A stretch of 32,000 nt of DNA from Candidatus Woesearchaeota archaeon (GCA_016203115.1 JACQNJ010000007.1:3115-35114), one strand, 5' to 3'; counted from the first letter of the stretch, positions 5,725 through 20,008 are shown. Translations and numbers: made by a program. Notes: generated by a model from the letters alone, not told the origin.

Positions 5725-7903
5725 AAGAAACAGGCACAATTGAAGACACTAAAAGAGTAAAGACAACAGTAACAATAACTGCTAAGATAAAGTATAATAT
5801 TGAAGATGAAAACAGATTGCTGCTCATAGTGTATTGCTCTTGTAAAGGATCAAGACCATATTCAATTCTAGTTGACAATAAAGACAGTATTATCACAATT
5901 TCAACTAAATACAATCCAATAATCAGCTGCATATAATAGCTTGGAATAATGTTAGAAATGTTGAATATGCCTGCAATAGCATCAAGATTTCCAGGCACAG
6001 CAACATCAGTGCCCTCTGTGTTTGAACCAGAGAGAAGAACAATTAATTGCACAATAATCGTAACAATCATAGTGCTAATACCAACAACAATGCCTGAAAT
6101 AATAGGGCTTAAAAAACTGATTTGGCTTTTCATGCTGGATAGTGTATCATTCAATAAATCCTTCAGTCTTTCATTTACTTGATGAATTCTGTTGACATAA
6201 GTAGAAATGCTGATCAATGACTTGGCAACAATCGTAGTTCCCTTCCTGCTGCTCTCCAATAAAACTTTCATGCTTGTTTCAATTAAACTGCTAGGAAACA
6301 TCATGATTGCGCCATTGCTTCCAAATAAGGCGCTCTTGACACTCATTCCCAGTCTCTGAATGTTATAGCTTACAGCCCTAAAAAAATCACCAGTAGGAGT
6401 TCCTTCCATATTCTGTGCCACATCATTAAAAGCTACTTCAACAGGCACTCCATCTCCAACCCTATTCCCTAGTTGAAACAGGCCCCCTGAAAATTCTTTT
6501 TCCAAATTCCTGATATTATTTCTCAAAGTAATAAGATTTTTACTTCTTAGCCTATAGTAAACTCCAATTCCCAAAGCCAATCCTAAAGGGAGAAACAGCC
6601 CAAATAAAACAGCACCAGGACCAAAAGGACCAAAGCAATTTGAACCAAAACTACAAGATTTTCCTTCAGCAGAGGTCATATTCACAACATCAACACCTAA
6701 AAGGGAAAAGTCATTGCCGCTCAACATCATGAAAAGTGGAATTAAGCCAATAAACCCAATAACTAAAAAAACAAAAAACCCAATCCAGAAAGGATGAAAT
6801 AAAATTTCTTTGCCTCCAAAATTAAAAACGATATAGGAATATTTTCTAAGTCTTGGGTTTTTCTTTAGAATATCTGCTTCGCTATATCCAGTAGGTCTTT
6901 TAGATAAAATGCTAGTTCCATACAAGTACAAAAACACAGGCAAAAACATGTTGTAAAGTAAAAATAAAATAAGCGCTTTAATTGCCCCACTTCCCTGAAC
7001 TAAGCTTCCTAGCAAAGGTAAGATAACCAGTCCTAAAACAGGCAAAACAACACCGAGCATATTCAAGATAGTAATAGGATTTTGCAATTCATGCGCATAA
7101 TGCAGCATCCTCTCATACATCCCATCTAATATCACTTCCAAAGATTTTTCTAATAAACTTATTCTCCTGTCATCGCTCTCTTCCAACAAGCTTCCCTCAA
7201 TTAAATGAAAAGCCTCAACAAATTCTAAGTTATAGTCTCTCCATTGCACTAAATAAAAATCAAGGCTTTCTTTAATAGTAGAATATTTCCCAGTTTCAAC
7301 ATCCCAAAATATTTTCCTCAAATCTAATGACAAAGGATTACCAACATGATCTGCGGCAAACTTCAGGGCATGTTCTAAATTTGATGTATGCCTCATATAC
7401 ATAACAACATAAAGAATACATAAAACCATCTGATTTCCTGCTTTTAATCTCCATCCATTTGCAAGATAATTTGGAATGCCAGTTAAAGGCTTCAACAATA
7501 AAGCTCCTATCAAAAAGAAAATTAAAAACACAATTAAAATAGTAAAACTAAACTCCTCGGTAATAATCCAAATAAGACTGCTCAAAATTAAACCTATAAA
7601 AATAGTAGACAAAGAAATAAAGCTCGCAAAACTTGCAGCACCTTCAGGAGTAATATCTAAGTGGATAGTATCAATACTTTTTTTCAAAGAATCATAATCC
7701 TTATCCTTTACTCTAATACTCAAAACATCTTCAAGATTATTGCATGCATTCTCATACAAATTTTTTCCACTACTCAACGAATCTCTTCTAAAAACCCGGT
7801 ATTCTCTTGAAAAAGTATCAGGATTATAATTTTCTGCATCCTCCATAGAGATATTGCTCTTTAATTTCTTCTGATACTTCCTGATAATATCCTCTTCTCT
7901 CAT
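5711..7903 (-). CDS. Type IV pilus/archaellum-class membrane platform protein (PilC/TadC/FlaJ-like, T2SS-F-type repeats)
   Basis: 730-aa polytopic protein with two cytoplasmic helical domains, each followed by TM bundles. Its start overlaps the ATPase stop by 4 nt. Confidence 0.7.
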   Translation of the reverse strand: MREEDIIRKYQKKLKSNISMEDAENYNPDTFSREYRVFRRDSLSSGKNLYENACNNLEDVLSIRVKDKDYDSLKKSIDTIHLDITPEGAASFASFISLSTIFIGLILSSLIWIITEEFSFTILIVFLIFFLIGALLLKPLTGIPNYLANGWRLKAGNQMVLCILYVVMYMRHTSNLEHALKFAADHVGNPLSLDLRKIFWDVETGKYSTIKESLDFYLVQWRDYNLEFVEAFHLIEGSLLEESDDRRISLLEKSLEVILDGMYERMLHYAHELQNPITILNMLGVVLPVLGLVILPLLGSLVQGSGAIKALILFLLYNMFLPVFLYLYGTSILSKRPTGYSEADILKKNPRLRKYSYIVFNFGGKEILFHPFWIGFFVFLVIGFIGLIPLFMMLSGNDFSLLGVDVVNMTSAEGKSCSFGSNCFGPFGPGAVLFGLFLPLGLALGIGVYYRLRSKNLITLRNNIRNLEKEFSGGLFQLGNRVGDGVPVEVAFNDVAQNMEGTPTGDFFRAVSYNIQRLGMSVKSALFGSNGAIMMFPSSLIETSMKVLLESSRKGTTIVAKSLISISTYVNRIHQVNERLKDLLNDTLSSMKSQISFLSPIISGIVVGISTMIVTIIVQLIVLLSGSNTEGTDVAVPGNLDAIAGIFNISNIIPSYYMQLIIGLYLVEIVIILSLLSTRIEYGLDPLQEQYTMSSNLFSSSILYFILAVIVTVVFTLLVSSIVPVSSTSF

Positions 7904-10188
7904 GTCTTAAAATTCTTAACCTCTTTTTTTAGCCAGTTTCCCCATTCAAAGAAAATACGCTTGCTATCCAAGCTTCCAGTTTTCTCTCTCACATCATCCA
8001 TCAGCTGGTGAAACGAATCATTGCTCTTTACAACAAAATCAGCTTCCAATAACTGGTAATTATTAGTCTTATTGGCCATTTCAACTAAAGCTCTTTTTAT
8101 ATTTGCTCTTAACTGGATATTGTCAAGCACTGCATCCCAATTTCCAGTAAATTCTTTTATTTGGGAAGCAATAGACTTCAAAACATCGCTATCCCCTTGA
8201 AGCAAAGCCTCTGTTGGCTTCAAAAGATCATCTTTGACATCATATTTCATCAAATCAACAAATCCATTTTCTCTTAAAGGATCATTTTCCCAATGTTTTC
8301 TGACTTCAGTAATTTGTAAAATCCTTCTTTGTTTATGTAATCCCCCGCTAGTCTTAACCGGATTGCTAATTACAATAATATCTGTTGCTTTAAAGCTAGT
8401 TTTAGGTACTTCCAAATCATTTACAACTCTGTCATATACAGCATAGGGGCTAGCCCCATGGATAGTTCCCGCTACAAGATTAGCTAATGCCCCTATTCTC
8501 ATAGCCTCATAAAGTGCTTTACTCTCTGTCGATCTTATTTCGCCAATAATCAGGCTGCTATCTCCAAATCTTAAGCTTGTTCTTATTCCCTCATCAGCTC
8601 CAACTTCGCTTCCTCCTTTAGTCAAGGCACTCCTAACTTTCATGGCCTGGATGTTGTATCCTATTTTTCTTAAGTAATCATTTGGGATCTCCTGTGTATC
8701 CTCTACAACAATAATTCTATGCTTTCTCATTAACTCAACTAAAGTGCTTCCTAACAAAGAGGTTTTTCCAGATCCTCTTGTCCCAGCAAAAAGCACTGCT
8801 CTTCCTCCATCAACTAAAAAGCTTAATAAACCGGCTGCATAAGGCCCCATCATCCTGTTAGAAATAAATAAAGGATATGTCCAAGGGTTGTCTCTGTGTC
8901 TTCTAAAAGCAAAAGCTAATCCCGAAGGATTCAAAGGTTTGCCCATTACAGCAACTCTTGCTCTGGCATAAGGTAATATAAGCTCTGTATCTAAAACAGG
9001 GTTAGCTTCATCTAATGGTCTCCCACTAATAATCCTAAACTTGGTAGCCCAACTTTCTCCATCTTCTCTTGCAGGAATAATATTAGTAGTGCATTCATCA
9101 TAATCCCCATGAACAATAAACAAGGGCGTTTCTCCAATCGGTCCATTCACATTGATATCCTGGATATTTTTATCTTTCAATAAAAGCTCAACAAATCCAA
9201 ATCCTACAGTATACCTGACAAGAATATGGGCAAGTTCGTCAATTTCAGCATAGCTTAAATCATAGCCTCTGTGCTCAGCCAATTCAGTAAGCATATCTTT
9301 TCCAATGTTAAAGAAAGTTCTTCTCATTTTTTCAGGATCAGTAAATTCTTCTTTCTTAGGTTTGTATTCAAGCATAGAATTTCTGGCTAAATCTAAAAGA
9401 ACATACTTCTCCTCAGAAATTTTAAATTCTGGAGGACTTAAATGATAATAGTATTTAATATCATTTGGAATTTTATAAATAGTTACATCAGTTCCTGCAT
9501 CTAAGTTATAAGCATCAATTTCTTCCGCATATAAAGGAATTTCTGCCATTAACCTTGTAAAAACAAAGTCCGGTCCAATTTCAGGCTTAAAAACAGTTCT
9601 ATAAATTCCTCTGCTTCCAACAACATGCCCTGCAAGAGAATTCCTGACAAGAGAAATTAAGGTTGCTCCATCTAAAAGTTTGATAAGATAGTTCAATGTT
9701 TCAACATAAGCAGATCTCGCATGAACATCATCCAAAGATTCAGTTTTCCTTATCTTGATTTTCTCATCTCTTAAAATCCTTTTAAGCTCGACATAAGCAC
9801 CTATAGGGTCGCTTTTTAGCAAATTGTATATAAGAAAGTTCAGAGTTTCCCTCCACTCCTGTGAATAAAACTGAAAAGCTTCTGTCTGCTCAAAAAAGCT
9901 CAGAGATAGGATTTTCTTTTGTTTCGTCAAATAGCTATAAAGCCCTGCAATTTCATTTAAAATATTAGTTTGTTCATAGCTGTACACATAATTTCTTCGT
10001 TGAGTAAAAAGAATTGTATTGACTCCGGGAGATTCAACAAGAATATCCATAACTTTCGCCATTGTAGCATCACTATCCTCTATGCTGGGAATAGAAGGGT
10101 ATCCATCATAGTTTATCTTAAGAAGAGTATTTGCACCTTCTTTTTCAATTACATAACCCCCAGGTTTAACTTTCTTATCAAACAACAT
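7900..10188 (-). CDS. Type II/IV secretion-family ATPase (FlaI/PilB/VirB11 class) with long N-terminal extension
   Basis: Walker A GTRGSGKT (residues 469-476), Asp box RIIVVEDTQEI, Walker B SLIIGEIR, His box GTIHGAS. Confidence 0.9.
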   Translation of the reverse strand: MLFDKKVKPGGYVIEKEGANTLLKINYDGYPSIPSIEDSDATMAKVMDILVESPGVNTILFTQRRNYVYSYEQTNILNEIAGLYSYLTKQKKILSLSFFEQTEAFQFYSQEWRETLNFLIYNLLKSDPIGAYVELKRILRDEKIKIRKTESLDDVHARSAYVETLNYLIKLLDGATLISLVRNSLAGHVVGSRGIYRTVFKPEIGPDFVFTRLMAEIPLYAEEIDAYNLDAGTDVTIYKIPNDIKYYYHLSPPEFKISEEKYVLLDLARNSMLEYKPKKEEFTDPEKMRRTFFNIGKDMLTELAEHRGYDLSYAEIDELAHILVRYTVGFGFVELLLKDKNIQDINVNGPIGETPLFIVHGDYDECTTNIIPAREDGESWATKFRIISGRPLDEANPVLDTELILPYARARVAVMGKPLNPSGLAFAFRRHRDNPWTYPLFISNRMMGPYAAGLLSFLVDGGRAVLFAGTRGSGKTSLLGSTLVELMRKHRIIVVEDTQEIPNDYLRKIGYNIQAMKVRSALTKGGSEVGADEGIRTSLRFGDSSLIIGEIRSTESKALYEAMRIGALANLVAGTIHGASPYAVYDRVVNDLEVPKTSFKATDIIVISNPVKTSGGLHKQRRILQITEVRKHWENDPLRENGFVDLMKYDVKDDLLKPTEALLQGDSDVLKSIASQIKEFTGNWDAVLDNIQLRANIKRALVEMANKTNNYQLLEADFVVKSNDSFHQLMDDVREKTGSLDSKRIFFEWGNWLKKEVKNFKT

Positions 10189-13934: not shown

Positions 13935-14649
13935 CCTAATTATAATAATTCTTTTAACATTAATTTTTGCTTATAATGACAGAAAAGAGGTTACAACTCT
14001 AGTATCTTGGCTCGCAAATCTCTTTAGAACATTCATAATTGTTGCAATATCTGTGCAAGTGCTTATACTCGGTTATAAGTTAGCAGCAAAATATTACAGG
14101 GTTTCATTAAAATTCACTCTTTGGAAGATAATAGAGCAAGAAAAAAAGATTTCATTGAAGGCATTTCATCTCCCTCTACCAACATATCTAGGGCAGATAA
14201 TGGCAATAATAGTAACACTAGTATCATCAGGCTTGCAATATTTCACTGCAATCTCCAGATTTTCACTAGACACAGAAAGAATTGACAGAAAATATAAGTA
14301 CGTAAGGGACCATGAGGCTTCAATGATATCAATCGCAGGAATACTGAGCAGTTTCATAGCCTTAATTTTCTTCAGGCAGATAAACTCAGAAACAGGCACT
14401 ATTGTAAACACCTGGATAATCATTGGCAACTTAATTCCTTTTTCAACGCTTCCTGGAAATTATATCGCAATGCACTCAAGAACTAGTTATGTTTTTGTAG
14501 CATCAATAGTAATAATTACATTAATTTTAGTGGGGGTTCTATCTGCAAAAATAGCATTAATTCTTGCATTAATTGCCGCCATGATCCTCACTTTAGCTTA
14601 CTTCAGGTATATAGAATATGGTAAAAAGATGTTCTCAGACAAATTTTAA
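13891..14649 (+). CDS. Polytopic membrane protein resembling a catalytically dead M50 (site-2 protease) domain
   Basis: VLILGYKLAAKYYRV aligns to the M50 consensus xHELGHALAAKxYGV with H, E and H replaced by L, I and Y. NLIPFSTLPGN aligns to NLLPxxPLDGG with D replaced by P. The ATG at 13891 (or the track TTG at 13879) overlaps the traB 3' end in another frame. Confidence 0.5.
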   Translation: MKKESLKFSGEILDSLIIIILLTLIFAYNDRKEVTTLVSWLANLFRTFIIVAISVQVLILGYKLAAKYYRVSLKFTLWKIIEQEKKISLKAFHLPLPTYLGQIMAIIVTLVSSGLQYFTAISRFSLDTERIDRKYKYVRDHEASMISIAGILSSFIALIFFRQINSETGTIVNTWIIIGNLIPFSTLPGNYIAMHSRTSYVFVASIVIITLILVGVLSAKIALILALIAAMILTLAYFRYIEYGKKMFSDKF

Positions 14650-14912
14650 AAAAGGGAAAGAATACCCTTTTGCAGCAGCCATAATGCAAAAAGTAGATTA
14701 AAAAAGCTATAAAAGTTAAACAGAATCAAAATCATAAAAACAACAGCAACCATATCTATCCAGCTAGACCAGTTCATCAAAAAAATTAAGCTTTTTAGCA
14801 GGAGTAAAAATGTTATAAGAATAAAAGCTCCCGTAAAAACAATATCAAATCCAGCGAGTATAAAAAAAGCCGCAGCAAAAAGATCAACAAGCCCAAGAAG
14901 TTTGGCAATCAT
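14646..14912 (-). CDS. Small three-TM membrane protein, unknown function
   Basis: 88 aa, almost entirely hydrophobic. A TATA-like box lies about 26 nt upstream. Confidence 0.45.
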   Translation of the reverse strand: MIAKLLGLVDLFAAAFFILAGFDIVFTGAFILITFLLLLKSLIFLMNWSSWIDMVAVVFMILILFNFYSFFNLLFALWLLQKGILSLF

Positions 14913-14923
14913 AAGGCAAATAG

Positions 14924-14942
14924 TTTAAATAGGTTTTTAAAT
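14924..14942. promoter_or_regulatory. Back-to-back TATA boxes for hef helicase (+) and the 88-aa membrane protein (-)
   Basis: TTTAAATA (14924..14931) lies about 25 nt upstream of 14953. ATTTAAAAA on the minus strand (14933..14942) lies about 26 nt upstream of 14912. Confidence 0.4.
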
Positions 14943-14952
14943 CTTTATACAA

Positions 14953-16461
14953 ATGTTTGAAATTAAGAATTACAAACCAAGAGGGTACCAGGAAAACATA
15001 GTAAAAACTGCGCTTTATCATAATACATTGATTATTCTTCCTACAGGCCTAGGAAAAACAAAAACAGCAATATTGCTGGCAGTAAAAAGGTTAAATGAAT
15101 ACAGTAATACGCAAGTACTTTTTCTTACACCCACAAAACCTTTAGCAGCACAGATTATAAAAGAATTCCAGGAAAATACAAACATAGAAGAGGAATATGT
15201 CCAAATGCTCACAGGAGTAATATCTCCTAAAAAAAGAATAGATGTATTTAGGCAAAGCAAGATAATAATAGCAACACCGCAAACAATTCAAAAAGATTTA
15301 GAAAATAGCAGAATAAGCTTGGAAGACGTTTCCCTCTTAGTTATTGATGAGGCCCATAGGTCAAAGGAGAATTACGCAAATACAAAAGTAGCATCTTTTT
15401 ACAGCAAACAAGCAAGGAATCAAAGAATAATTGCTCTAACTGCCTCTCCAGGAGGTACAAAAGAAAAGATAGATGATGTCTGCAAAAATCTCTTCATAGA
15501 AAAAGTAGAAATTAGAGAAGAACAGCATAAAGAAGTATCAAAATACGTGCAAAAGAAAGAAATAAAATGGATAGAAGTAGAATTGCCAAAAGAAATGAAA
15601 GAAATTCACAAAGCAATAAAAGAAGTATACAAATCAAGATTAAAAGATCTTACAAAACTTGGATTTCATAAACCCATGAATGTAATAAGCAAAACAGACA
15701 TCCTCAAATTGCAGGTACAATTAAGAAAAGAAATAGAAAATAGAAATCAAATAGCATTTTATGGTATATCCTTAACATCATACCTGCTTAAAGTAGACTA
15801 TCTCTTAGAACTTCTAGAAACGCAGGGATTAGAAGCAGTTCAAAAATATTGGGAAAAGCTAAAAACAGAAAGTTCAAAAGCTGCAAAAGCTTTATTTAAT
15901 AATAAAGAAATAAAGGATATTATGGAAAAAAATAATGAGCTGATAAAAAAAGGTATGAAACATCCAAAGCTGGGCATATTAAGAGAAACTGCAATTAGTG
16001 AGTTAAATTCAAATCCCGAGGCAAAGATAATTATTTTCGCGAACTATAGAAGCACGATAGAAGAAATATTAAGATACATAAATGATGAAGGGGGTATAAA
16101 AGCAGTTAAGTTAATAGGGCAAAAGTCCGGACTATCACAAAAAGAGCAGATAGAAACAATAAAAAGTTTCGCGGAAGGAAAATATAATGTAATGGTAGCC
16201 TCACAAGTGGGTGAAGAAGGACTGGATATCTGCGGGGCTAATTTAGCCATAATGTTTGATCAGGGATCCAGCTCTGAAATCAGGAAGATACAAAGGTATG
16301 GGAGAGTAGCCCGCCTAGAATCAGGGAAGATAATATCTCTGTTAACAAAGGATACAAGGGAAATTGGATATTACTGGGCAATCAAAAGAAAGGAAAATAC
16401 TATGAGGGGAATACTTCGAAAGATGCAAGCGGATAAAGAAAGCCAATCAATATTAAGATGA
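14953..16461 (+). CDS. hef: Hef-type (FANCM/Mph1-like) superfamily 2 helicase, helicase part only
   Basis: Motif I LPTGLGKT, motif II VIDEAHR, TASPG, an inserted helical domain between the RecA lobes, VGEEGLDI, and QRYGRVAR. Confidence 0.85.
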   Translation: MFEIKNYKPRGYQENIVKTALYHNTLIILPTGLGKTKTAILLAVKRLNEYSNTQVLFLTPTKPLAAQIIKEFQENTNIEEEYVQMLTGVISPKKRIDVFRQSKIIIATPQTIQKDLENSRISLEDVSLLVIDEAHRSKENYANTKVASFYSKQARNQRIIALTASPGGTKEKIDDVCKNLFIEKVEIREEQHKEVSKYVQKKEIKWIEVELPKEMKEIHKAIKEVYKSRLKDLTKLGFHKPMNVISKTDILKLQVQLRKEIENRNQIAFYGISLTSYLLKVDYLLELLETQGLEAVQKYWEKLKTESSKAAKALFNNKEIKDIMEKNNELIKKGMKHPKLGILRETAISELNSNPEAKIIIFANYRSTIEEILRYINDEGGIKAVKLIGQKSGLSQKEQIETIKSFAEGKYNVMVASQVGEEGLDICGANLAIMFDQGSSSEIRKIQRYGRVARLESGKIISLLTKDTREIGYYWAIKRKENTMRGILRKMQADKESQSILR

Positions 16462-16462
16462 A

Positions 16463-17560
16463 TTAAATAGCCCACTTATGTGGAATAGGGCCAGCACCTT
16501 CAATTTTTTTAATATTGCCGAATGCATAAAGACCATTCAAATGTTTTATGGTGTTCCTATAAGAAAAACTGAATCTTCTCTGAATTTCAGATGCGGTAAA
16601 AGAACCTGTTTTATTTTTTAACAGAAAAAAGATAATCTTTTCTTTATTTAAACCAGGAATTTTGCTTTTTCTTAATTTTTTAAATCCGCATATGAGTTTC
16701 TTTTTTCTTAACACATGATACCTAAACAAGTCTAAAAACACAAATGTACCTAAGTTCTTATAGCCAGTTATGCATACATCATATTTATTTTTCCTATTTC
16801 TTGAAACTACGCCAAATTCATAAAGTAGGTTAGCAATGAGAATTCTTTCCTCTTCTCTTTTAGAGGTATAAGTAACCATATTCAAGGAACCAGTACGGGT
16901 AATATTGGGAGAACCTTCTCCTGCAAACGCCCCTCTTAAGAAAAAAAGAATGTATTCTTTAGGAATATTCGAAAGAATTTTTGAGAGGTTATTCAAAAGT
17001 CCAGTTATCAGTAATTGAAAAAGTATAGAATTGGCCTCCAAATGTAATGTTCCAAATTCTTTTATTTTTCCATTACCAGCAGATTTCTTAGTTCTTATGC
17101 CAGTAATGTTGCTGGGTTTAAGAAAAGTATTACTAATCCAAAAAGAGATAACTTCTTTTTGATTTTTGGTGGATCTTTCATGTAGTTGGATCCAAGCAGA
17201 TAGAGTACTCTTTCTAACTCCAAGAAGTTTAAAAAACTTAACAGCTTGATCAATTATTAAAGGTTCACTATTAGTTATTTTAGATCTCCTATTTCTAGAA
17301 CCTTCAGCAAGGTAGATTCCTAACCCGACCATAAAGTCTTCATTAATCCTTGAATAAATCGGAATTTTTAATGGCAGTAAGGAATGAGAATATTTGTAAC
17401 TATAAAAAACGATAGCATAACCATGATTAATTGTAAATTGTATTTTATGTTGTTTATATCTATCTGGAAATAAAAGGAGATTATTAATATAAATCTTGTT
17501 TTTAAAGTTGACAATTAAACTTCCATTAAGTTTGTCTCTAAAGACAATTTTCTCTCTCAT
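16463..17560 (-). CDS. LAGLIDADG-like double-motif protein with C-terminal winged-helix-like domain (free-standing homing-endonuclease-like)
   Basis: Two xxGxxxxEG blocks: FMVGLGIYLAEGS and FFLRGAFAGEGS. The C-terminus FTASEIQRRFSFSYRNTIKHLNGL is wHTH-like. Its stop codon lies 1 nt from the Hef helicase stop, in convergent orientation. Confidence 0.5.
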   Translation of the reverse strand: MREKIVFRDKLNGSLIVNFKNKIYINNLLLFPDRYKQHKIQFTINHGYAIVFYSYKYSHSLLPLKIPIYSRINEDFMVGLGIYLAEGSRNRRSKITNSEPLIIDQAVKFFKLLGVRKSTLSAWIQLHERSTKNQKEVISFWISNTFLKPSNITGIRTKKSAGNGKIKEFGTLHLEANSILFQLLITGLLNNLSKILSNIPKEYILFFLRGAFAGEGSPNITRTGSLNMVTYTSKREEERILIANLLYEFGVVSRNRKNKYDVCITGYKNLGTFVFLDLFRYHVLRKKKLICGFKKLRKSKIPGLNKEKIIFFLLKNKTGSFTASEIQRRFSFSYRNTIKHLNGLYAFGNIKKIEGAGPIPHKWAI

Positions 17561-17603
17561 AGTGTTAATACGAGATTCAGCAATATATAAACCTCGAGCG
17601 TGA

Positions 17604-18368
17604 GGTTGTCCGGTTGACTAGTGAATAGAAGGCTATATGAATATGAGATGATGGCAAGGGCTTGGGAACTATACTATAGAGGTCTTTCTCTCAGAAATAT
17701 TAAGCAATATTTGAAGATTCACTTTGGAACTAAGAATCTAAGTCATTCAACAATATTCTACTGGGTACAGCACTGCTCGGAAATTATGAATAAATATACT
17801 ATTCAGTTCCTTCCTAAAAGTATTGATACTCTCCATGCCGATGAAACTACATTAAAAGTGGCTGGAACTATGCATAAAGGATATTGCGATGCATGGCTAT
17901 GGGTTGGCATAGACTTAAAATCAAAATTACTAGTTTCAACCTACATTTCTCAAGGAAGAACCTTGACTGATGCAACAAAATTTGTGAATGGGATTCCAAT
18001 TACACCAAAAAGAGTTATTACAGATGCTTTACCTTCTTACATAATCCCAATTAAACAAAAATGGAACAATAAAGCAAGACATATTGTTGTAAAGAATATT
18101 TCTTCAAACATTACAAATAATGTAATAGAGAGATTTAACGGATTCGTAAAAGACAGGACAAAACCAATGAGGGGCTTTGGAGCAATGCACTCTGCTGAGA
18201 CTTACTTCAAGGGCTTATCTGTTTATAATAATTTTATTAAGCCACATAGCTCTTTAGACGGTAAAACCCCTGCTGAATTTTTAGGTATTGATTTGGGCTT
18301 GGCTGATAATCCTGTTTTGGATATATTAAAAAGAAGCATTTAATATACACATTTTATAGAACGCAACC
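17604..18368 (+). mobile_element. IS6-family insertion sequence (boundaries approximate)
   Basis: About 765 bp with a single DDE transposase. The termini begin GGTTGTCCGG.. on the left and, as reverse complement, GGTTGCGTTC.. on the right. Only the first 5 nt match cleanly, and no flanking direct repeat was seen. Confidence 0.5.
17621..18343 (+). CDS. IS6-family DDE transposase
   Basis: N-terminal HTH (LSLRNIKQYL..SHSTIFYWV). D74 (HADETTLKV), D135 (VITDALPSY) and E170 (NNVIERFNGFVKDR) have 34 residues between the second D and E. MRGF follows the E. Confidence 0.8.
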   Translation: MNRRLYEYEMMARAWELYYRGLSLRNIKQYLKIHFGTKNLSHSTIFYWVQHCSEIMNKYTIQFLPKSIDTLHADETTLKVAGTMHKGYCDAWLWVGIDLKSKLLVSTYISQGRTLTDATKFVNGIPITPKRVITDALPSYIIPIKQKWNNKARHIVVKNISSNITNNVIERFNGFVKDRTKPMRGFGAMHSAETYFKGLSVYNNFIKPHSSLDGKTPAEFLGIDLGLADNPVLDILKRSI

Positions 18369-18407
18369 AATAGAAGATATATATTAGAAAATATATAAAA
18401 AATAATA

Positions 18408-18863
18408 TCAATGACTAGGGTTCATATTCTCCATATACCCATCTAAAAATTTTGGTAAATCAGTTTGAGATATATCCTGTACAGGTCTAGTAAAAAATTC
18501 GTGTGTTGGAATATCATTCAAAGCAGAGGTAAGAATTCTCTCTATAAACCTAGCTTGATGAGCATTTCTAGTTTTAAAATATACACCAACTAAAGTACCA
18601 TCTAAAATTAAAGGGTGCATAATATCCCTACCACCATTAAAAGGAAATGCATCCATATAGTTCCCGTGTTGTCTAGAAGCAGGAGCATAGTTTCTATCCG
18701 GAAAATCAAAGTAAACCCCATCTCCAAAAGGGAGTACATTAGTAACGCAAACCTTCACTGTATCAAGAATTGCTTTACCATCTTGAGATTCAATCGCTCC
18801 AACATCATTTAAACCCATAAAAGTCAAAGTCAATAAAGAACCAACAACATGTCTCATTCTCAT
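18408..18863 (-). CDS. Hypothetical protein, compositional outlier (ORFan)
   Basis: A 151-codon ORF in a stop-rich AT genome with only 4 Lys. I recognised no motif. A TTTTTATATA box at 18886..18895 lies about 27 nt upstream. Confidence 0.5.
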   Translation of the reverse strand: MRMRHVVGSLLTLTFMGLNDVGAIESQDGKAILDTVKVCVTNVLPFGDGVYFDFPDRNYAPASRQHGNYMDAFPFNGGRDIMHPLILDGTLVGVYFKTRNAHQARFIERILTSALNDIPTHEFFTRPVQDISQTDLPKFLDGYMENMNPSH

Positions 18864-18885
18864 AAAAATGCATAATAAAGATAAG

Positions 18886-18903
18886 TATATAAAAATTTAT
18901 ATG
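18886..18903. promoter_or_regulatory. Back-to-back TATA boxes for the ORFan (-) and the Hef nuclease (+)
   Basis: TTTTTATATA on the minus strand (18886..18895). TTTATATGG on the plus strand (18896..18903). Each lies about 25-27 nt from its start codon. Confidence 0.4.
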
Positions 18904-18924
18904 GTATAAAGATTACAAATAAAC

Positions 18925-19584
18925 ATGGAAATAATAGCAGATTATAGAGAAAAGAAGATTATTTTGGAACTATCTAAAAAGCATATCAAAGTTACTGCAA
19001 AAAGTTTAATTTCTGCAGATTTTATAATTCAATCAAAAACAACAGAAGGAAGGGTTGTTTTAGTAGGTATAGAGAGAAAGACAATAACTGATTTTTTAAA
19101 TTCAATAATAGACAAAAGAATAATCATCCAGTTATTAACATTAAAAGAAAATTTTGATACACCTATTTTATTAATAGAAGGGGAAGAAAATATTTACCAG
19201 GTTAGAAATTTTCATCCAAATTCAATAAGAGGAATGCTTTCAGCCATAGCAATAGACTTGCAAATACCAACATTATACACTAAAAATGAAAAAGACACTG
19301 CTTCATACATAGAAACAATAGCAAAAAGGATGGAGAGTAAGAGAAAAGATATTAGTTTATTAAAAAAAAGAAAACCACTTGAATTAAATGAAATGCAGGA
19401 GTATCTTATTGAATCATTTCCGGGAATAGGCCCAACAATAGCAAAGAATCTACTTAAGAAGTTTAAAACAGTAAAAAGAATAGTAAACGCTAAAGAAAAA
19501 GAATTATTAGAAGTGGAGAAATTAGGAAAGAAAAAAGTCAAAGAAATCAAGAGGGTTTTGGAAGAGAATTACGAAAAGGGTTAA
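18925..19584 (+). CDS. hef: XPF/Hef-type ERCC4 nuclease with C-terminal (HhH)2 domain
   Basis: ADYRE, SADFII and GIERKT (ERCC4 GDxn-ERK signature). HhH segments FPGIGPTIAKNLL and VEKLGKKKVKEI. It has its own TATA box (TTTATATGG at 18896..18903) about 25 nt upstream. Confidence 0.85.
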   Translation: MEIIADYREKKIILELSKKHIKVTAKSLISADFIIQSKTTEGRVVLVGIERKTITDFLNSIIDKRIIIQLLTLKENFDTPILLIEGEENIYQVRNFHPNSIRGMLSAIAIDLQIPTLYTKNEKDTASYIETIAKRMESKRKDISLLKKRKPLELNEMQEYLIESFPGIGPTIAKNLLKKFKTVKRIVNAKEKELLEVEKLGKKKVKEIKRVLEENYEKG

Positions 19585-20008
19585 ATTCTTCTTTTAAGGG
19601 GTTGAGTCTAGCCCTTTCATATTCCAAACAAGCTTCAAGGTCCATAGTATAATGAGAACTACATCCAGTAAGGGTAAGTTTTCTCTCGGGGTCATCAATT
19701 AACAGTATAACATAAGGTCTCATTTCCCTATAAAGTCTTAATCTGGATTCAATATCAGAAGAAAAGGCTTCACCCAAGTGTTCCTCATGTACATACATAG
19801 ACCTACCATCTAAATTTATACTACTCAATGCTTGTTTAATCAACATTAAAACAATGCTCCTATACTTATCCGGACATTTACCAATAGTGACACCAAGAAA
19901 ATTATAGCCTCTTCTTTCAAGTTGATCTATAATTGCATCTCTTGAACTATGAACGATATTAGTTAAAAATCCCAATTCATTAAAAGAAACAATTTTTTTA
20001 ACATACAT
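19547..20008 (-). CDS. Hypothetical protein (ORFan)
   Basis: A 153-codon ORF whose 3' end overlaps the nuclease gene 3' end by 38 nt in convergent orientation. I recognised no motif. Confidence 0.5.
   Translation of the reverse strand: MYVKKIVSFNELGFLTNIVHSSRDAIIDQLERRGYNFLGVTIGKCPDKYRSIVLMLIKQALSSINLDGRSMYVHEEHLGEAFSSDIESRLRLYREMRPYVILLIDDPERKLTLTGCSSHYTMDLEACLEYERARLNPLKEEFNPFRNSLPKPS

Follow-up and report, generated by a model that had tools for sequence, protein, structure and literature searches.

The window analyzed here is a 32,000 nt stretch of a Candidatus Woesearchaeota archaeon genome (GCA_016203115.1, JACQNJ010000007.1:3115-35114) with a G+C content of ~33%, and its closest relatives are metagenome-assembled Woesearchaeota (DPANN archaea). 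It encodes Hef as two genes on one strand, separated by 2,463 nt, and we are concerned with the age of this split and the source of the intervening DNA, in particular of a LAGLIDADG gene adjacent to the helicase gene. The helicase gene (14953-16461, plus strand) encodes a 502 aa stand-alone Hef-type subunit of superfamily 2 (SF2) with intact motifs, and the nuclease gene (18925-19584, plus strand) encodes a 219 aa Hef-type protein with ERCC4 and tandem helix-hairpin-helix, (HhH)2, domains. Immediately beyond the helicase gene lies a free-standing, two-motif LAGLIDADG gene (16463-17560, minus strand; 365 aa) of a short form with a C-terminal winged helix; its stop codon and that of the helicase gene are separated by 1 nt (16462). 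It is followed by an IS6-like DDE transposase gene (17621-18343, plus strand; 240 aa from a GTG codon, or 231 aa from the ATG at 17648), and by a Lys-poor ORFan (18408-18863, minus strand; 151 aa) that has its own TATA box and matches no family. The last 61 nt before the nuclease gene (18864-18924) form a divergent promoter region with back-to-back TATA boxes for the ORFan (~18885-18895) and the nuclease (18896-18903). An earlier note on this DNA had placed the five open reading frames (ORFs) at these coordinates and on these strands and had pointed out the 1 nt gap between the two stop codons, all of which we find in the window.

Both separated proteins are readily identified as parts of Hef. 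The helicase contains DEAD and Helicase_C domains together with the Hef-type helical bundle PF21210 (RNA_helicase_helical), and matches positions 16-510 of the 781-position NCBIfam Hef model NF010337 (PRK13766) at 524.8 bits; motifs I (PTGLGKT), II (DEAH), III (TAS) and VI (QRYGRVAR) are readable in the translation. The nuclease contains ERCC4 and HHH_5/HHH_2 domains and the motifs DYRE (DxRE) and ERKxxxD, and matches positions 572-780 of the Hef model at 205.6 bits, a higher score than that to the archaeal, crenarchaeal-type short XPF (118.6 bits). Single-polypeptide Hef, for which the curated cutoff is 610 bits, is not what is encoded here, each of the two genes scoring below it. These domain and model matches bear out the earlier assignment of the two genes as an SF2 Hef-type helicase module and an ERCC4+(HhH)2 nuclease module, and the suggested comparison of the helicase C-terminus and the nuclease N-terminus with Hef shows that only the linker, corresponding to model positions 511-571, is missing across the two halves. 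We infer that both halves are expressed and work together.

The separation of the two genes is not peculiar to the window. The best 120 helicase homologues are all ~490-510 aa long and none has an ERCC4 domain, and the closest relatives (67-77% helicase identity) retain synteny on both sides of the locus, with the gene order T2SSE … TraB … helicase, nuclease, a variable ORF, LigT, DUF192, arginase, OB-fold and TctA. Among these relatives (the loci compared are given L numbers and the proteins P numbers) the helicase and nuclease genes are separated by 2 nt in L005-L007, and overlap by 1 nt in L010 (TAATG) and by 10 nt in L009; in remoter relatives the overlaps are 20 nt (L003) and 8 nt (L004), and this abutting or overlapping arrangement implies a single transcript. 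The start of the nuclease gene is well-conserved, with the first 20 residues identical in the window, L010 and L005, and with 93% identity between the window and L010 over the first 60 nt. Because the closest relatives already have abutting separate genes without the insert, the insert is not the cause of the split; the split is ancestral and older than the insert, and the insert is lineage-specific. Two origins had been offered for the locus, and the one in which an ancestrally split pair became a landing pad for mobile DNA is borne out in this lineage by these abutting, insert-free genes and by the ~500 aa helicases that are the rule in the clade.

Fused Hef proteins are also encoded by Woesearchaeota, a point that the earlier note had missed, and are 733-748 aa long (e.g. 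MCD6589791.1). Their linker is merely 10-20 residues and contains a Q-x-x-[LI]-x-x-F motif resembling a PCNA-interacting protein (PIP) box, and the fission point falls directly after the position of this motif. In the one fused locus looked at (L051), hef is followed by a convergent LigT gene, as at the window locus. The comparison of relatives proposed in the earlier note therefore yields loci that are split and abutting or overlapping, loci that are split with an insert, and, in other Woesearchaeota, loci that are fused.

The window helicase is a mosaic, and its last ~490 nt are foreign. In a sliding-window comparison, residues 1-320 are 82-86% identical to the closest sisters (P0002-P0006) and 72-75% identical to P0007-P0009, and residues 321-502 are 53-58% identical to all eight of these, the nearest proteins being P0010-P0020 (59-61%). 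The window groups with its sisters in 100% of bootstrap replicates for residues 1-320 and in 6% for residues 321-502, where the sisters form a clade without the window in 99% of replicates. At the nucleotide level, identity of the helicase gene to that of L010 falls from 82.6% to 60.8% in the 3' tract, and a maximum chi-squared analysis places the breakpoint at ~nt 15972 (chi-squared of 92.2, against a null maximum of 23.6 in 2000 codon permutations; p<0.0005). Sisters differ from one another evenly over the two partitions (L010 and L005, 84.7% and 86.3%; L010 and L009, 72.4% and 70.7%), and identity of the window to the outgroup L047 shows no drop, being 61.6% and then 62.8%. Local rate acceleration would therefore seem a poor explanation of the mosaic, because the sisters diverge evenly and the identity between the window and L047 is unchanged.

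The foreign 3' tract of the helicase gene (15972-16461, plus strand; about codons 341-502) adjoins the insert and is a putative co-conversion tract. Comparison with the sisters reveals no foreign tract on the nuclease side of the insert, where the gene is native to the lineage from its first codon. Because the helicase breakpoint is at ~15972 and the nuclease gene is native from its start, the foreign patch corresponds to ~15972-18924 (2.95 kb) and contains the LAGLIDADG and transposase genes and the ORFan in addition to the helicase 3' end. The insert had previously been drawn as 16462-18924; foreign DNA fills that interval and also takes up ~490 nt of the helicase gene. The pattern is consistent with homing accompanied by one-sided co-conversion, or with any homologous replacement from a divergent donor whose junction was occupied. 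We note that the (HhH)2 part of the nuclease gene (19325-19584) diverges more than the ERCC4 part in all sister-lineage pairs (L010 and L009, for example, have 75% nucleotide identity in the ERCC4 part and then 66% in the (HhH)2 part), and pairwise comparison of the sister lineages reveals no window-specific breakpoint within it. Nuclease copies with apparent frameshifts, reflecting either decay or assembly error, are present at L008:3390-4024 and L013:2843-3482.

A protein search identifies 29 homologues of the 365 aa LAGLIDADG protein with 39-53% identity. Three of these were traced to loci of helicase matches, and each has its gene flanked by those of a Hef helicase and a Hef nuclease, in the opposite orientation, with its 3' end overlapping that of the helicase gene. 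A metagenome scan adds 16 further loci of the family, with helicases that are 35-53% identical to that of the window, and every family locus with sufficient flanking sequence has the order nuclease, LAGLIDADG, helicase, with a 3' overlap of 4-24 nt between the LAGLIDADG and helicase genes. The family thus occupies the helicase/nuclease slot in at least 20 Woesearchaeota loci belonging to three deep clades, and is tied to this junction rather than being a random passenger. The earlier note had correctly placed a LAGLIDADG gene between the Hef halves and had missed the hold that its family has on the same junction in distant lineages. Neighbor-joining (NJ) trees of the helicase and of the LAGLIDADG protein recover the same three deep clades, A, B and C, with 98-100% support, and pairwise identities of the LAGLIDADG protein correlate with those of the helicase (r = 0.80) and the nuclease (r = 0.68), with similar absolute values. 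Because its identity tracks that of the Hef proteins and the same clades are recovered, the LAGLIDADG gene has long accompanied the locus, under purifying selection.

Occupancy of the junction is patchy. Within clade A, the NJ tree joins the window to L005 and L010 as their sister (98%), L009 branching next (100%); these three relatives have empty junctions, as do L003 and L004. In clades B and C, the LAGLIDADG protein itself was the query by which the loci were identified, and full occupancy there is a sampling effect. Four loci (L047-L050) hold unrelated small minus-strand ORFs in the slot, such as L047:6484-6825 (113 aa) and L049:6487-6675 (62 aa), in relatives with 57-58% helicase identity to the window. 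Those of L047/L048 and of L049/L050 show no relationship to each other and extend 8 nt into the helicase 3' end; they were considered as decayed LAGLIDADG remnants and rejected as such, with neither BLASTX nor a hidden Markov model of the family giving any similarity. Broken copies of the LAGLIDADG gene with apparent frameshifts, from either decay or assembly error, are present at L020:3620-4817 and L032:1488-1795.

All 12 of the family members searched match LAGLIDADG_3 (PF14528), and the two LAGLIDADG motifs are GLGIYLAEG, in which E86 is invariant, and FLxGAFAGEG, in which E215 is nearly invariant (≥90%). Members usually have an N-terminal helix-turn-helix (HTH) region, and one clade has a C-terminal winged helix. 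The window copy does not have the N-terminal HTH region of most homologues, and at least two natural copies (P0123 and P0131) are equally short and start at the same domain boundary. The idea that the IS6-like gene had truncated the LAGLIDADG gene is unsupported, there being no N-terminal remnant in the window and P0123 and P0131 starting alike. Distant relatives of ~220-230 aa with an N-terminal HTH and a single motif (GLGIYLGEGSK) are encoded in L033-L043. An AlphaFold model of the window protein (predicted local distance difference test score, pLDDT, 89.3) has the pseudo-dimeric alpha-beta-beta-alpha-beta-beta-alpha LAGLIDADG fold, and its top Foldseek matches in the PDB are E-DreI, I-DmoI, PI-SceI, the bI3 maturase, I-SceI and I-CreI, with WhiA lower; the matches to E-DreI, I-DmoI, PI-SceI, I-SceI and I-CreI have Foldseek probabilities of 0.96-1.00 in most rows. 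As in homing endonucleases, presence is patchy at one defined site, the helicase/nuclease junction, and the nearest lineages are empty. Patchiness with retention of catalytic residues is what a homing-endonuclease life cycle would predict, and taken alone would also be compatible with a dispensable host function. In our interpretation the family consists of homing endonuclease genes, or of genes very recently derived from them.

We consider it fairly probable, taking these observations together, that Hef in this lineage is an old two-gene enzyme whose junction is the home of a family of homing endonucleases, and that the window acquired its patch by recombination. The two genes would originally have abutted or overlapped by a few bases, and their junction would be the home site of a dedicated free-standing LAGLIDADG family. 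In the window lineage, a divergent donor whose junction was occupied would have recombined homologously with an empty junction and converted it, bringing in the ~2.95 kb patch with the LAGLIDADG gene and the last ~490 nt of the donor helicase gene, together with the transposase gene and the ORFan, the latter two either arriving with the patch or landing in it later. The right-hand crossover would have been at the nuclease start codon. The LAGLIDADG protein is predicted to cleave empty junctions, and such cleavage may have driven the conversion. The position of the element, after one stop codon and before the next start codon, leaves both Hef halves undamaged. The nuclease gene would have lost its abutment with the helicase gene and would now be served by a TATA box in the inserted DNA.

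Several observations weigh against this reconstruction. The donor is unsampled; the closest LAGLIDADG homologue is only 53% identical, and nothing known exceeds ~61% identity to the foreign helicase tract. Homologous recombination is inefficient between sequences of ~60% identity. The LAGLIDADG genes evolve no faster than the host genes, and their co-divergence and mirrored clades would fit long vertical residence, or even a host function, no less well than homing. Finally, the window copy, without the N-terminal HTH region, may be inactive.

A deeper role for the element, in which the two-gene form arose when an ancestral LAGLIDADG gene entered the short linker of a fused Hef, directly beyond the PIP-like motif, is in our view unlikely, although several observations speak for it. 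This could have happened more than once, with the empty junctions being secondary losses and the window having either regained or retained the original state. Each of the three deep split clades includes occupied junctions, and the same clades recur in the LAGLIDADG tree. With 41 fused forms added to the NJ analysis, clades A, B and C are each recovered with 98-100% support and a clade of all split forms is present in 9% of bootstraps; the split clades are thus not recovered together, each lying closer to certain fused forms than to the remaining split clades. Fused forms are found in the same phylum, L051 having the same convergent LigT neighbour, and nrdA of phage Aeh1, split by mobE, provides a precedent (PMC3045599). 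However, the NJ backbone is weak, both for the helicase alone and for the concatenated halves, with distances near saturation, and occupancy in clades B and C reflects the way these loci were found. The overlaps at empty junctions (-1 in TAATG, -8, -10 and -20) are those expected of fission by point mutation and would less naturally result from precise excision, no fused gene with a LAGLIDADG remnant was found, and the mosaic helicase marks the window copy as a recent import rather than a relic. That a LAGLIDADG family specialised on the Hef domain boundary may have split fused Hef in up to three clades is accordingly a doubtful proposal. If true, it would be a cellular, intein-free counterpart of the phage 'genes in pieces', and alternation between occupied and empty junctions would allow the element to survive for a very long time.

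It is somewhat less likely again that the LAGLIDADG-winged helix protein is an immobile, domesticated partner of Hef, acting as a DNA-binding regulator (for example, of the divergently transcribed nuclease gene) or as a third component of the Hef system. Its co-divergence with the locus at host-like rates, the HTH or winged-helix domains at one or both ends, its divergent orientation to the nuclease gene, as with many regulators and their targets, and the presence of WhiA, a LAGLIDADG-derived transcription factor, among the structural matches are all in its favor. However, domesticated LAGLIDADG proteins such as WhiA are without the catalytic glutamates, and here both are conserved; the family has an HTH, as WhiA does, and also retains the acidic residues that WhiA has lost. 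The gene is missing from the nearest relatives and from most of the clade A loci sampled, with Hef genes that look intact, and no more than three of the top 120 helicases pair with a LAGLIDADG match. Broken copies exist, and the window copy came by recombination.

The remaining proposal of the earlier note, that this mobile DNA broke a fused hef in this lineage which was later repaired into two genes, is very improbable and, at this time depth, refuted: although Hef is commonly fused in euryarchaea and fused forms occur in Woesearchaeota, sisters with 67-77% helicase identity already have two genes and no insert, the window nuclease has the same N-terminus as theirs, and the C-terminal tail type of the window helicase (ESQSILR) occurs in LAGLIDADG-free relatives such as L047. 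An assembly chimera, with truly adjacent helicase and nuclease genes and the intervening DNA misjoined at a repeat, can be set aside as virtually impossible, since although one Logan assembly breaks within the transposase gene, its two contigs share 30 nt, as expected at a k-mer graph branch, a contig from SRR12113384 (L044) crosses from the helicase through the nuclease (15626-19477) at 100% identity, and two more runs yield contigs, again with 100% identity, for the transposase-ORFan region and the DNA on either side. Altogether, contigs matching the window at 100% are available from four runs (SRR12113383, -84, -85 and -424) and jointly cover 14299-19643, and the arrangement of the hef locus is not a misassembly.

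The tail of the helicase is of interest in its own right. In 54 of 117 stand-alone helicases there is a [LIMV]-x-x-[FYW] sequence within the last nine residues (e.g. QSNINRFL and QSDLTDFA), resembling the single-aromatic PIP box of Thermoplasma Hef. The window tail (16426-16458; ESQSILR) and those of relatives ending in ESQSTLI or QTTL have no aromatic residue, and PCNA binding may be lost or altered in helicases of this sort. We considered that the insertion had rewritten the helicase C-terminus and destroyed a PIP box, and rejected this because the tail type is shared by relatives without a LAGLIDADG gene, such as L047 (ESQTTLI), and is also that of the P0010 group (ESQSTLI); it characterizes the donor-like lineage.

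Sequences related to TTTATATA are positioned as promoters of most genes at the locus. With up to one mismatch, such 8-mers have a background density of 0.002 per nt per strand, and one is located 25.5-28.5 nt upstream of the ATG of each of the helicase, LAGLIDADG, ORFan and nuclease genes, and at the same spacing at three other window genes with an upstream intergenic gap, making seven genes in total; the transposase gene has no TATA-like box at that spacing. The nuclease box, the 8-mer TTTATATG, is centered 25.5 nt upstream of the ATG, in agreement with the ~25 nt given previously. That of the ORFan is centered 26.5-28.5 nt upstream, and that of the LAGLIDADG gene is at approximately 17584-17591 (minus strand), ~27.5 nt upstream of its ATG. 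Spacings of 25.5-28.5 nt between TATA boxes and start codons suggest that mRNAs in this organism are mostly leaderless. The sisters do not have the 61 nt promoter region, the nuclease ATG abutting or overlapping the helicase stop codon, and there the nuclease presumably shares a transcript with the helicase. In the window, the nuclease is predicted to be expressed from the TATA box within the inserted 61 nt spacer between it and the ORFan.

The transposase aligns end to end (2-202 of 202) with the NCBIfam IS6 model NF033587, scoring 118.8 bits against a cutoff of 125, and matches the Pfam family DDE_Tnp_IS240 (E = 6e-12). The claim that an IS6-family element is present is upheld for the IS6-like gene and not for the element: no terminal inverted repeats or target duplication were found around the gene, the best candidate being 14 nt with two mismatches and lying inside ORFs. 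There is no second transposase copy in the window, and a sequence search finds the identical protein at the window locus only. The ORFan is, as previously described, low in lysine (2.6%, compared with 11-15% in its neighbours) and free of homologues; none is found among 5.8 billion protein clusters, and there is no family match in Pfam, NCBIfam or PHROGs. Its AlphaFold2 (AF2) model has a pLDDT of 41.9, too poor for a fold search. Possible kinship with the 153 aa ORF downstream of the nuclease gene or with the spacer ORFs of other loci was also considered, and all-against-all BLASTP gives nothing.

At other occupied loci, the stretch between the LAGLIDADG and nuclease genes varies from 66 nt to >2 kb, and its cargo is unrelated between lineages, including a TrmB regulator (L018), an Exo_endo_phos enzyme (L021) and an AsnC-type regulator (L028). 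In clade C, an HNH endonuclease gene with homing endonuclease associated repeats (L027:3418-4089) is located just upstream of the LAGLIDADG gene; there is no Hef nuclease within 5 kb at this locus, and the nuclease half may be displaced further off or lost. The window transposase and ORFan fit this pattern of variable cargo in the spacer, whether they arrived with the patch or later.

The slot between the nuclease and LigT genes looks like a second variable hotspot beside the nuclease. In the window it contains the 153 aa ORF (19547-20008, minus strand), which has no family match and overlaps the nuclease 3' end by 38 nt, and relatives have ORFs of 127, 107, 289 and 209 aa, with 80-148 aa ORFs in clades A and B; no mutual similarity is detectable among those of the relatives compared. 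Inteins are also found in this neighbourhood. The Hef helicase of L004 (L004:6006-9128; CAYNBR010000006.1) has an intein of ~540 aa with a LAGLIDADG domain in helicase motif II (…LLIVDEC / ITGDSQ…IVHN / CHRSKENY). Derivation of the junction LAGLIDADG gene from the endonuclease of this intein was rejected, there being no sequence similarity, and because the two are unrelated, the hef locus is a target of two different mobile-endonuclease strategies. The T2SSE-type ATPase is a second intein presence/absence polymorphism in the hef neighbourhood: it is 1272 aa with Intein_splicing and LAGLIDADG_3 domains in L009 (L009:1-2265), and 762 aa with no intein in the window (7900-10188).

Among known systems, the arrangement most resembles that of phage mobE, which lies between nrdA and nrdB in T-even phages and splits nrdA in Aeromonas phage Aeh1 (PMC3045599, PMC2988022). 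In both, an endonuclease gene is located at the boundary of two enzyme pieces that function as two polypeptides, and promoter elements arrive with the insert; spread of mobE by double-strand-break repair with co-conversion of the flank may have its counterpart here in the mosaic helicase 3' end. The host here, in contrast, is a cellular archaeon, and the enzyme is a LAGLIDADG protein with extra HTH domains; mobE encodes an endonuclease of another class. Moreover, here the split exists in close relatives without the endonuclease gene, the halves have no insertion-derived tails, and the family co-diverges with the host locus over deep time. A second parallel is with the fractured genes described mainly at phage loci, in which split-intein halves at the broken ends join the protein together again (Dassa et al. 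2009, PMC2677866). Here the halves remain separate polypeptides without an intein; a domain search reveals no intein or Hint domain, and both ends are flush with those of insert-free relatives.

The two proteins have the helicase core, including the Hef-specific helical insertion, and the ERCC4+(HhH)2 module of archaeal Hef and the FANCM-XPF-MUS81 group, and the split point is directly after the PIP box position at the end of the helicase domain (PMC4838364). Canonical Hef is one polypeptide with a longer linker, whereas here both halves are kept as neighbouring genes. Thermoplasma Hef (taHef) is helicase-only and has no nuclease partner (PMC4838364), and like it many of the split helicases end in a single-aromatic PIP-like motif, although the window tail has no aromatic residue. 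The LAGLIDADG protein resembles I-DmoI, which with the chimera E-DreI is its best match in the PDB, in having two motifs with conserved acidic residues and a pseudo-dimeric fold, at a sequence identity of ~14%. I-DmoI is intron-encoded and ~190 aa, whereas the family here is free-standing, intergenic and on the opposite strand to the host genes, and has additional parts, namely a beta-rich region at the N-terminus, a winged helix at the C-terminus and, in most members, an N-terminal HTH.

Free-standing homing endonuclease genes between enzyme pieces are known mainly from phages, and archaeal LAGLIDADG genes mainly from introns and inteins, and a search of the accessible literature found no description of a two-gene Hef or of the junction LAGLIDADG family in DPANN archaea. 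The family would be a phylum-wide one tied to a single intergenic junction in a cellular genome, with a conversion tract still visible. The predicted enzyme, if active, would provide a new long-target nuclease scaffold with accessory HTH domains, and the locus would be a natural system for the persistence of such elements and their shaping of gene architecture in reduced DPANN genomes. The presence of fused, abutting-split and interrupted-split Hef in related Woesearchaeota would likewise constitute a natural experiment on the need for helicase-nuclease linkage in the FANCM/XPF family.

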